In this document: positions 26,846 to 29,152 of the stretch, in pieces
Numbering within the stretch: the stretch's first letter is position 1
How the letters are laid out: every line of letters begins with the position of its first letter
Assembly (NCBI GenBank): GCA_018830585.1
Contig: JAHJSD010000013.1
Span: 1-34,261, forward strand
Source of the DNA: Patescibacteria group bacterium
Lineage (GTDB): Bacteria; Patescibacteriota; Microgenomatia; UBA12405; JAHJSD01
Reading direction: 5' to 3'
Length of the DNA: 34,261 nucleotides
Position numbers and translations under genes: made by a program
Notes under the pieces: generated by a model
The model's database searches: none
What the model saw: only the letters and a program-made list of their open reading frames with translations
Told to the model about the DNA's origin: nothing

Positions 26846-26900
26846 GATTCTTGCGTCATAAATCACCTAACATGGTATATGGGGTTACTGTCATACGTCA

Positions 26901-27048
26901 TATCACACACCCGGTGTGTGATAGGTTGACACCTCGGGAATTATTTATCACACACCCGGTGTGGGAAATTCTTCGAGTAACGTCGGGAAGAATTTGTTAA
27001 ATTAATTCGATCCTGGATCGAAAAACCTAAAACGATCCAGGATCGTGA
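26901..27048 (+). repeat. Modular repeat element, best-preserved copy (modules A+B)
   Basis: TATCACACACCCGGTGTGTGATA-GGTTGACACCTCGGGAATT, second ATCACACACCCGGTGTGGGAAATT, TTCTTCGAG hairpin, TTCGATCCTGGATCGAA...GATCCAGGATCGTGA. Confidence 0.85.
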
Positions 27049-27093
27049 TTATCCTGCTTGAATTTAAACTTCAACTTCCGGTATAATATTGGT

Positions 27094-27303
27094 TAGCAAA
27101 AACAACGATCCTGTTTGTGACCCAGGGGAGTTGAAGGAAGAAACCCCGCTACCACGGGGAAGTAAAGCCTTCCGGGCGCGCCCGTAACAGCGTTAAATGA
27201 GCTCTCGACTTTAGGTCGGAGGAAGCAGGGTGGCACCGCGAACTTATGTAAGCCCTCGCCCCTGTCAATCAGTTTGTCTTGGTTGATATGGGCGAGGGTT
27301 TTT
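27094..27303 (+). ncRNA. T-box riboswitch, ultrashort Stem I, GAC (Asp) specifier, intrinsic terminator
   Basis: T-box AAGCAGGGTGGCACCGCG (27223-27240); terminator GCCCTCGCCC...GGGCGAGGGTTTTT; Stem II with AGTA loop; GCCCGTAACAGC; promoter TTGAAT-18-TATAAT (27058-27087). Confidence 0.88.
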
Positions 27304-27346
27304 AATTGGAGCAAAATCTGTTAAATTTTAACTAAAGAATAAAAAA

Positions 27347-29152
27347 ATGAAACGAACCCTGATAAAAGATACCGTTTCTTCAGTTGGCAAAAAAGTGGCG
27401 ATCTCCGGTTGGGTAAATAGTGTCCGGAGTCATGGCAAATTAGCCTTTGCTGATATCCGGGATAGGTCTGGAATGATTCAGGTAGTTGGAGGAAAAGAAC
27501 TTGCTAAACTAAATCCGGAATTTGTTGTTAGAATGGAAGGATTGGTTAAAAAAAGAGAAGAAAAATATTTTAATCCCAAAATAGCCACCGGGGAAATCGA
27601 GCTAGAAGTAGAAAAAGTGTTAGTTTTGGCTGAGGCGAAAAACTTGCCTTTTGATATTCATCAACCTAATTTGGACGTTTCCCTGCCTGTTTTGCTGGAC
27701 TATCGGGCCGCTTCATTAAGAAACAAAAAAATTTCCGATATCTTTCGGGTTCAGGCAACTATTGTCAAAACTTTTAGAAAACATATGAACGACAACGGTT
27801 TTATTGAATTTCAGGCTCCAACGATTGTTGCTACTGCCACCGAGGGAGGATCGCAGGTTTTTCAAGTTAATTATTTCGATTACAAAGCCTACTTGGCCCA
27901 AAGCCCTCAATTTTACAAACAAATTATGGTTTCTGTTTTTGAAAGGGTTTTCACCCTGGCCCACGCCTACAGGGCAGAGCCAAGTGTTACTACCAGGCAC
28001 ATGACAGAATACATCGGCATGGATGTAGAACTGGGTTTTATTAACAGCTGGCTGGATGTGGTCGACACGGCAGACAAACTGGTTAAGGCCGTTTTCGCCG
28101 AAGTAAAAAAAGAACATTCAGATATCTTGGCAAATTTTGGAACAACTATTCCTAAAACAGCAGAGAAAACTCCAATAGTGAAACTGTCAGAGGTGCAGGA
28201 AATAATTTTTAAAAGAACCGGCCGGGATATTAGGGGAGAGCCGGACATGGATCCCGAAGGGGAAAGAGAAATTTGCCGTTGGGCGGAAGAGAAACACGGA
28301 AGCGAGATTGTTTTCATCAGTCATTATCCGACCAAAAAAAGACCTTGGTACACCTATCAGGATCCTGAAAATCCGGAGGAAACTCTAAGTTTCGACTTAG
28401 TTGGCCGTGGAGTAGAATGGATTACCGGCGGCCAAAGGATAAATGATTTTGAAGTTCTTTCCGCCAATATTAAAAAAATGGGAGGCGAGCCAAAAGATTT
28501 TGAAATCCCCTATTTACAGGCCTTTTGTTACGGTATGCCGCCGGAAGGCGGATTTTGCTTAGGACTGGAAAGGGTAACTCAGAATATTTTAGGCTTGTCC
28601 AATATAAGGGAAGCGACCCTTTATCCCAGAGATTTGGAAAGAGTAGATGCCAGACTTTCGGTTATCGGCCAAAAAATAGCCGGAAAAAACAAAAATCTTT
28701 TCCATGAATTGATCGATCTGCTTGTTGAAAACAGCATCAACTATCGGCTTTGCAACCATCGGGCAGTTTATACCAGTAAAGAAGCGGCCGAAGCAAGGGG
28801 GACAAAGCTTAGTCAGGGGACCAAGGCATTGATAATGATGGCTGACAGCAAACCGATTTTAGCTGTTATCTCTGCCGCCAAGGAGGTTGATATTGAAAAA
28901 CTTAAAAAATTACTGGCAGCTAAAAAATTAAAAATGGCCACTGCTTTCGAAGTCGAAGAAATTTCCGGAGTTAAAATCGGCGCCGTTCCGCCGTTCGGTA
29001 GTCTGATTGGGCTAAAAATATGGGTTGATAAAAGTTTAGAGAAAAACGAGGAAATTGCTTTTAATGCCGGATTGCACACCAAATCAATAATTATCGCCTA
29101 TCGGGATTGGTTTAACCTGGTCAAACCAGAAAAAGCGGATTTTTCATTGTAA
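27347..29152 (+). CDS. aspS: Aspartyl-tRNA synthetase (short, no-GAD type) fused to a C-terminal YbaK/ProX domain
   Basis: OB fold, ATEGG, LAQSPQFYKQ, YRAEPS.T.RH, GMPPEGGFCLGLER; last ~155 aa with GTKALI, GAVPPFG, FNAG. Confidence 0.92.
   Translation: MKRTLIKDTVSSVGKKVAISGWVNSVRSHGKLAFADIRDRSGMIQVVGGKELAKLNPEFVVRMEGLVKKREEKYFNPKIATGEIELEVEKVLVLAEAKNLPFDIHQPNLDVSLPVLLDYRAASLRNKKISDIFRVQATIVKTFRKHMNDNGFIEFQAPTIVATATEGGSQVFQVNYFDYKAYLAQSPQFYKQIMVSVFERVFTLAHAYRAEPSVTTRHMTEYIGMDVELGFINSWLDVVDTADKLVKAVFAEVKKEHSDILANFGTTIPKTAEKTPIVKLSEVQEIIFKRTGRDIRGEPDMDPEGEREICRWAEEKHGSEIVFISHYPTKKRPWYTYQDPENPEETLSFDLVGRGVEWITGGQRINDFEVLSANIKKMGGEPKDFEIPYLQAFCYGMPPEGGFCLGLERVTQNILGLSNIREATLYPRDLERVDARLSVIGQKIAGKNKNLFHELIDLLVENSINYRLCNHRAVYTSKEAAEARGTKLSQGTKALIMMADSKPILAVISAAKEVDIEKLKKLLAAKKLKMATAFEVEEISGVKIGAVPPFGSLIGLKIWVDKSLEKNEEIAFNAGLHTKSIIIAYRDWFNLVKPEKADFSL

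Follow-up and report, generated by a model that had tools for sequence, protein, structure and literature searches.

The aspS gene in the 34,261-nucleotide stretch of Patescibacteria DNA analysed here (the window) is preceded by an RNA leader that is a real T-box, most likely a transcriptional attenuator that senses tRNA-Asp and controls the sole aspartyl-tRNA synthetase (AspRS) gene of the genome using a Class III decoding module devoid of the part that contacts the tRNA elbow. The leader was observed to have the motifs of a T-box in their proper order and two helices that exclude each other, its pairs covary in relatives, and it matches the tRNA-Asp of the genome uniquely. Judging from the sequence, the leader is predicted to bind tRNA, to sense its charging and to switch.

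A reading of the sequence located every element that an earlier note on this DNA had claimed for the leader, each where the note had placed it. The features are as follows.

27058..27087, + strand: sigma-70-like promoter (TTGAAT, 18-nt spacer, TATAAT), a consensus match alone, at 10/12 positions
27096-27303, + strand: T-box leader, 43 nt 5' of aspS
27103..27133, + strand: ultrashort Stem I, 31 nt in total, found in the minimum-free-energy fold and in the Rfam alignment
27103-27106 with 27130-27133, + strand: basal helix of Stem I, CAAC with GUUG
27107-27108 and 27128-27129, + strand: K-turn position of Stem I, GA and GA, with the K-turn aligned by Rfam
27109-27113 with 27123-27127, + strand: 5-bp hairpin of Stem I, UCCUG with CAGGG
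27114-27122, + strand: apical loop of Stem I, 9 nt, UUUGUGACC
27119..27121, + strand: specifier GAC (Asp) in the apical loop, cognate anticodon GUC of tRNA-Asp
27134..27171, + strand: Stem II, with a proximal and a distal helix and the internal loop GAA/AGUA (S-turn motif)
27134-27137 with 27168-27171, + strand: proximal helix of Stem II, AAGG with CCUU
27144-27148 with 27155-27159, + strand: distal helix of Stem II, CCCCG with CGGGG
27161-27164, + strand: S-turn AGUA of Stem II, with AAGUA aligned to AGUA of RF00230
27173..27192, + strand: Stem IIA hairpin CGGG-CGCG-CCCG, then UAACA-GCG, from the Rfam alignment
27173-27176 with 27181-27184, + strand: Stem IIA helix, CGGG with CCCG
27202..27221, + strand: Stem III, CUC(U)CGAC, loop UUUAG, GUCGGAG, from the fold and from comparison with the sister species G001
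27226..27264, + strand: antiterminator, RF00230 model positions 186-215, -9.1 kcal/mol
27226-27230 with 27260-27264, + strand: antiterminator helix A1
27231-27237, + strand: 7-nt antiterminator bulge UGGCACC, with UGGC at 27231-27234
27238-27241 with 27256-27259, + strand: antiterminator helix A2
27227-27240, + strand: T-box sequence AGGGUGGCACCGCG
27250-27301 (core 27253-27298), + strand: intrinsic terminator, a 22-bp interrupted hairpin in the predicted fold
27299-27303, + strand: U-tract, 5 U and then AAUU
27347..29152, + strand: aspS, ATG at 27347, matching NF003483 with 453 bits (cut-off 353)

Both promoter hexamers are unchanged in the sister species G001 (the genome of the window is G000), and from the match to the promoter consensus the transcript would be predicted to start at approximately 27094-27096. 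The spacer upstream of the promoter (window 26880-27060) contains two short palindromic repeat families, one ATCACACACCCGGTGTGTGAT-like and one TTCGATCCTGGATCGAA...CGATCCAGGATCG-like, and dozens of copies of both are present across the genome, with other flanks on metagenome contigs. The K-turn register of Stem I can be read in two ways, as CAAC/GUUG with a tandem GA or as AAC/GUU with a 3-nt bulge, and the helix pairs of Stem I are retained in related leaders. The CGC of the IIA loop is complementary to GCG at 27190-27192, which makes a candidate IIB pseudoknot of 3 bp. A IIB complement of at least 3 bp (3-4 bp) is found in 12/13 leaders, a length that shuffled controls reach in 21-496/500 trials; against these controls the complementarity is not significant, and it is compatible with a pseudoknot.

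A covariance search with RF00230, which the earlier note had suggested as a check, aligns the model from end to end (model 1-219) at 27096-27266 with a score of 38.8 bits in an E-value scan of 26950-27400, below the gathering score of 93 bits. The match has an E-value of 3e-07 in this 451-nt scan and of 1.8e-7 when the entire 1.14-Mb genome is searched. A default Rfam scan of the window lists no T-box because the score of the leader lies under the gathering score. In the alignment 9 nt stand in place of 76 model positions of the distal Stem I, and the low score results from the ~67 nt that are thus missing. The K-turn (UGA...GGAG), the GAA...AGUA loop and Stem III are aligned to the matching positions of RF00230, and AGGGUGGCACCGCG agrees at 13/13 specified positions with the T-box consensus AGGGUGGNACCGCG, as quoted in PMC11297988.

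The terminator hairpin has an energy of -34.2 kcal/mol and its core one of -30.6 kcal/mol in our own folds. Its 5' arm shares 27253-27264 with the 3' strand of the antiterminator, so that the two helices are mutually exclusive. The terminator is retained in the sister species and present in 6/6 GAC leaders 5' of aspS, and both this recurrence and the overlap with the antiterminator support the transcriptional read-out claimed in the earlier note. The strong terminator with a U-tract that the note had placed about 40 nt before aspS is confirmed as far as the strength of the hairpin and its distance from the gene are concerned, but the U-tract is short. The hairpin was not listed for the + strand by a simple terminator scan of the window because its stem and loop are larger than the limits of the scan.

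These findings also bear on the idea that the T-box acts mainly at a post-transcriptional level, through translation or RNA decay in the manner of the actinobacterial Class III leaders, with the hairpin and the U-tract being incidental. This is quite improbable. The glyQS leader of the same genome (L002) appears to sequester its own Shine-Dalgarno sequence, which is in keeping with the idea, but the start of aspS lies 43 nt beyond the U-tract, and neither the sequence nor the fold shows pairing between the switch and the start region. Additionally, a G+C-rich 22-bp hairpin with an immediate U5 that overlaps the antiterminator is the standard terminator layout, and this layout recurs among relatives. 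In an order-wide sample of 15 short-stem leaders with Stem II, a scripted criterion (a hairpin of at least -13.8 kcal/mol in strength, a T-run and overlap with the antiterminator) recognized such a terminator in 12; those of L010 and L020, where the script chose a weaker and earlier hairpin, are visible by eye, and L026 has none. A contig from a metatranscriptome library (X5) is identical to 27264-27583 and spans the U-tract into aspS. It is compatible with read-through RNA, with DNA carry-over also being possible and contigs being unable to show transcript ends, and no contig of this library was found over 27088-27263.

The product of aspS is in residues 1-433 an archaeal-type AspRS of the non-discriminating type, to which a YbaK-like aminoacyl-tRNA editing domain is fused C-terminally in residues 471-589 (Pfam PF00152, PF01336, PF04073). 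The region of the YbaK-like PF04073 fusion, residues 457-601, is encoded by window 28715-29152; the AspRS orthologs are ~600-aa forms in some genomes and ~445-460 aa in others. GatA and GatB are present in the genome, and no AsnRS was found above cut-off in the 92.5%-complete assembly, in which the best match is the aspS gene itself. Since the AspRS is of the non-discriminating type and is found alongside GatA and GatB with no AsnRS detected, it should serve both tRNA-Asp and tRNA-Asn.

ARAGORN identified 38 tRNAs in this assembly, with no tRNA-Asn gene among them. The triplets of UUUGUGACC for which the genome has a Watson-Crick tRNA are GAC (Asp), UUG (Leu), ACC (Thr) and GUG (Val). Among the 38 tRNAs found, tRNA-Asp (GUC, G73) is the sole match to both a loop triplet and UGGC, its G73 being complementary to the C of UGGC. 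GAC is also invariant in 8/8 aligned related leaders. The Asp specifier proposed in the earlier note is thus supported by the gene downstream, by the tRNA set and by the relatives. The base 3' of GAC in the leader of the window is C, not the usual purine; in relatives the GAC loops are 5 nt long in G360, G287 and G318 and 8 nt in G341, with A or G after GAC.

A working T-box whose ligand is not tRNA-Asp alone is improbable. Such a leader would bind tRNA-Val through GUG-A or would also accept tRNA-Asn (GUU) through a first-position G-U wobble, and in the latter case it would report on both substrates of the non-discriminating AspRS. The tRNA-Val option draws on the usual codon-plus-purine pattern, as UUUGUGACC holds GUG followed by A and a tRNA-Val (CAC) exists, but the A73 of this tRNA is no partner for the C of UGGC, the downstream gene is aspS, and it is GAC, not GUG, that the 8 related leaders have in common. 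tRNA-Asn normally has G73 too. The tRNA-Asn option is favored by the non-discriminating type of the AspRS, by the presence of GatA and GatB with no AsnRS found, and by AAC leaders on the same gene in relatives. It is disfavored by the Stem II S-turns, whose reported role in checking codon-anticodon geometry (PMC7778990) speaks against a position-1 wobble, and the G73 of tRNA-Asn cannot be checked in this genome, where no gene for it was found in the 92.5%-complete assembly.

With tRNA-Asp as the ligand, the leader would be expected to work as follows. Transcription would start at about 27094 from the promoter at 27058-27087, and Stem I would display GAC in its apical loop while Stem II, with its S-turn, and the IIA/B pseudoknot would clasp tRNA-Asp (GUC) at its anticodon stem-loop. 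In the case of an uncharged tRNA, the 3' GCCA would pair with UGGC of the T-box bulge and stabilise the weak antiterminator (~-9 kcal/mol), and RNA polymerase would then read through into aspS. If the tRNA is charged, the far stronger terminator (~-34 kcal/mol) would form and transcripts would end at 27299-27303.

The leader of the sister species is identical to that of the window in 95% of columns. Stem III carries a compensatory change from CUC/GAG to UUC/GAA, the distal helix of Stem II shifts register between the two genomes with its pairing kept, and the differences between the two leaders are compensatory or in loops. A search for related loci with AspRS gave 2 loci, one of them that of the sister species. 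A covariance model (R1) was built on the two aspS leaders G000 and G001; it was restricted to these because a MAFFT alignment of 11 mixed leaders had Stem I too poorly aligned and was dropped for model building. Over 132 genomes of the order R1 scores 218 bits and 215 bits for G000 and G001 and no more than 40 bits in any other genome. In the class it has matches in 32 of 151 genomes, and GAC is found in the apical loop at 6 of the 19 R1 loci inspected. Four of these GAC loci (G341, G360, G287 and G318) precede the same type of AspRS (NF003483, 453-468 bits) and have UGGC and a terminator in 4/4; these four genomes belong to two other families. The GAC aspS leaders L111, L115 and L116 lack a Stem III hairpin in the stretch from IIA/B to the T-box sequence and are smaller than the leader of the window, their antiterminator ending after 134-141 nt.

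The conservation of base pairing was determined in two alignments, both of which were fitted to our own model structure and are biased towards it. In the 8 GAC leaders 93.7% of cells are paired, compared with 74.0% in shuffled and 30-49% in slid controls, and 27/38 pairs are changed on both sides. Stem II (helices 3 and 4) is 100% and 93.8% paired with 9/9 pairs changed on both sides, IIA (helix 5) is 96.9% paired and mostly invariant, and the antiterminator (helices 7 and 8) is 100% and 96.9% paired, again with 9/9 pairs changed on both sides; these counts include the row of L122, whose T-box part is misaligned. In 18 mixed short-stem leaders 90.5% of cells are paired, compared with 63.3% in shuffled controls, and 35/38 pairs are changed on both sides, with rows L103, L101, L010, L038 and L030 counted although Stem I is misaligned in them.

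The region upstream of aspS was also compared among orthologs. The comparison covered 43 upstream regions of AspRS orthologs with at least 54% identity, 3 of them less than 140 nt long; G089:C87, G096:C58 and two fragments, where contig ends are too near the gene, were left out. A GAC leader is present in 2/43 of these regions (G000 and G001), i.e. only in genus g1 within the order, AAC apical-loop leaders are present in 14/43, two of which are cut by contig ends, and no leader was seen by eye in the other 27/43. The expectation of the earlier note that GAC would be conserved in orthologous leaders was borne out in part, in that all 8 GAC leaders, including six on aspS, keep the triplet, but the orthologous aspS in family f4 has AAC in its place.

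The AAC leaders of family f4, which lie on aspS genes of the non-discriminating type, are L036, L039, L040, L053, L060-L062, L064, L065, L071, L075 and L076, with L058 and L069 being partial. Their apical loop is always AACA (Asn), and a Stem II (GGGAAGAA...UUAGAAC) and a IIA are also present. Their 3' part consists of an invariant GUGUGUC...GGAGCACGAAAA hairpin and then a hairpin with a U-run, without a AGGGUGGNACC box; AAAGGUGGUAC is found farther downstream only in L040 and L076. RF00230 gave no match at E<=0.1 in L036, L039 and L040, and in the 5 AAC-type leaders for which it was computed, pairing of the GUGUGUC motif with the terminator as an alternative structure did not reach significance.

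These comparisons also speak to whether the leader is a decayed relic that no longer switches, with the hairpin being a constitutive leaky terminator or only an RNA-stabilising structure. The Rfam score below threshold, the oversized loop with a pyrimidine after the codon, and the loss of the leader in 27/43 orthologous upstream regions, which indicates that it is dispensable in relatives, would fit a relic, but the chance of this is very small. All core motifs are intact and the T-box sequence is perfect, the differences from the sister species are compensatory or in loops, and the low score is due to the missing distal Stem I, a lack common to dozens of leaders that have a codon matching their gene. 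There is next to no probability that the region is a 73-aa minus-strand open reading frame (27314-27093) and not an RNA leader. The frame is in the list of open reading frames, but it was rejected as it has no Pfam match, the corresponding frame of the sister species is 51 aa long with other limits, and substitutions follow the RNA pairing.

The attenuator upstream of aspS is one member of a phylum-wide set of apical-loop, terminator-type T-boxes. RF00230 at relaxed thresholds matched 21/61 relatives, 1 of them above the cut-off, and in 151 sampled genomes of the phylum it matched 50/151 at E <= 1e-4 compared with 5/151 above the cut-off. The loop codon tracks the downstream gene in relatives, as the leader alignment proposed in the earlier note was meant to examine: AUC is found with ileS, GUC with valS, CCC with proS, UCC with serB, UAC with tyrS or a tRNA-Tyr gene, and AAC with bacterial-type aspS. 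Long-stem T-boxes are also present (L004-L008, L080-L086).

Several other leaders were observed in these genomes. T-box leaders with a UAC or UGG specifier are located directly 5' of tRNA genes, namely L006, L007, L010 and L022 (tRNA-Tyr) and L029 (tRNA-Trp), and in this arrangement the T-box seems to gate the gene for its own ligand. The Tyr leaders L005-L008, L017, L022, L030 and L038 have an insertion between IIA/B and the T-box that is made up of the GUGUGUC...GGAGCACG hairpin also seen in the AAC leaders and of another hairpin with a U-run after it, and Rfam puts this insertion in an enlarged Stem III. The glyQS leaders (L002, at G000 contig C67:1359-1486, L011, L014, L015, L018, L021, L027 and L028) have UGGA and no Stem II or IIA/B, and they are of the translational type, with a 3' strand able to pair with the Shine-Dalgarno sequence. 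GGC is in the loop of a short hairpin in L011, L014, L015, L018 and L021, and no specifier hairpin was identified on reading L002, the glyQS leader of the genome of the window. Short-stem T-boxes are also found 5' of an archaeal-type PEP carboxylase (TIGR02751, 410-476 bits) in L113 (G333), L118 (G355) and L122 (G417), with GAC in L122, AAC in L113 and an ambiguous loop in L118, which suggests that Asp or Asn may control the supply of oxaloacetate.

There is about an even chance that the Class III module without elbow contact is the standard T-box design of the phylum, acting co-transcriptionally with terminators on many genes, and that the specifier on aspS switches between GAC and AAC. The genes that this reading takes in are aspS, ileS, valS, proS, tyrS, trp-linked genes, serB, tRNA genes and PEP carboxylase. 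Reviews of T-boxes associate a long, elbow-binding Stem I with transcriptional control, for which contact with the elbow is said to be needed for rapid capture of the tRNA before the polymerase reaches the terminator (PMC7583486), and a short Stem I with slower, reversible translational control. This kinetic argument counts against an elbow-less attenuator such as the one proposed here. If the phylum-wide reading is true, contact with the tRNA elbow would be no kinetic requirement for transcriptional T-boxes, standard annotation would miss a whole regulatory layer, and lineages that switch between GAC and AAC would choose which tRNA substrate of AspRS reports on supply. Natural short-stem leaders with terminators make the kinetic argument directly testable, and the aspS leader is a clean example with its tRNA partner in the same genome. 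The regulation of aminoacyl-tRNA synthetases is under-annotated in the phylum because the Rfam threshold hides most of its T-boxes, as the two counts over 151 genomes show. Riboswitch re-specification is compactly illustrated by the alternation of GAC and AAC on one enzyme with two substrates.

The genome is 1.14 Mb in size, compared with 0.5-2.0 Mb for the genomes listed in the phylum sample. Ribosomal proteins L30 and L9 were not found in the genome; Brown et al. (2015) reportedly described the absence of both as typical of the Candidate Phyla Radiation. The stretch with the leader occurs in groundwater metagenomes, and independent DNA runs carry the leader unchanged (X3 at 27087-27645, X4 at 27045-27252). 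It is plausible, given the small genome, the failure to find L30 and L9 and the occurrence in groundwater, that the phylum of the host differs from Actinobacteria.

The hisS-aspS leaders of Firmicutes carry T-boxes. T-boxes have been reported in five phyla, with Asp-specific aspS T-boxes in Firmicutes (PMC2494555), and four classes are distinguished, of which Class III, e.g. the actinobacterial ileS leaders, combines a short Stem I lacking the elbow motif with a specifier in the apical loop and a Stem II (PMC10482949). Class III loops are 5-6 nt long with a conserved purine after the codon (PMC10482949, PMC7583486), and Class III and IV are described as those that 'mostly regulate translation initiation' (PMC10482949). 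The translational model of TBDB was, according to PMC7778990, searched only in Actinobacteria and in class I matches with a truncated Stem I. Our literature searches, which had the TBDB tables and some key papers outside their scope, returned no description of T-boxes in the Candidate Phyla Radiation or Patescibacteria. The decoding module, the read-out and the specificity of the aspS leader are each known, and their combination and the lineage are absent from the literature searched. The claim in the earlier note that the combination had not been described fits these searches and has to be read with the word 'mostly' in mind, since the literature does not say that Class III is always translational.

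The likeness to actinobacterial ileS leaders that the earlier note had claimed is upheld by the short Stem I without an elbow part, the apical specifier and the Stem II, which together define Class III in PMC10482949. The Class III ileS T-boxes of Nocardia farcinica, Mycobacterium tuberculosis and M. smegmatis, like the leader of the window, lack the interdigitated T-loop motif in their short Stem I. They also share with it a specifier in the apical loop, a basal K-turn, a Stem II S-turn and a discriminator with Stem III and a UGGN bulge, and their IIA/B pseudoknot has a candidate counterpart in the leader of the window (PMC10482949, PMC7583486). The leader of the window differs from them in that it reads GAC (Asp), not AUC, has a loop of 9 nt, not 5-6, with C and not a purine after the codon, uses an intrinsic terminator as its read-out and not sequestration of the Shine-Dalgarno sequence, and belongs to an ultrasmall groundwater bacterium, not to an actinobacterium.

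With the Class I transcriptional T-boxes (RF00230; Bacillus subtilis tyrS) the leader has in common the order of domains, the T-box sequence and the competition between antiterminator and terminator. In contrast to Class I, ~67 nt are absent from its distal Stem I, among them the two elements that stack on the tRNA elbow (the AG bulge and the distal loop), and its specifier lies in a terminal rather than an internal loop. As a result it falls short of the Rfam gathering score. In Clostridium acetobutylicum an Asn-specific T-box (the 'NT-box') reportedly controls the tRNA-dependent formation of asparagine (Saad et al. 2012, 2013). The NT-box belongs to the indirect route to Asn, for which tRNA-Asp and tRNA-Asn are both substrates of an AspRS, and it is a precedent for the AAC aspS leaders of the relatives; the leader of the window, in contrast to that of this Firmicute, reads Asp and not Asn.
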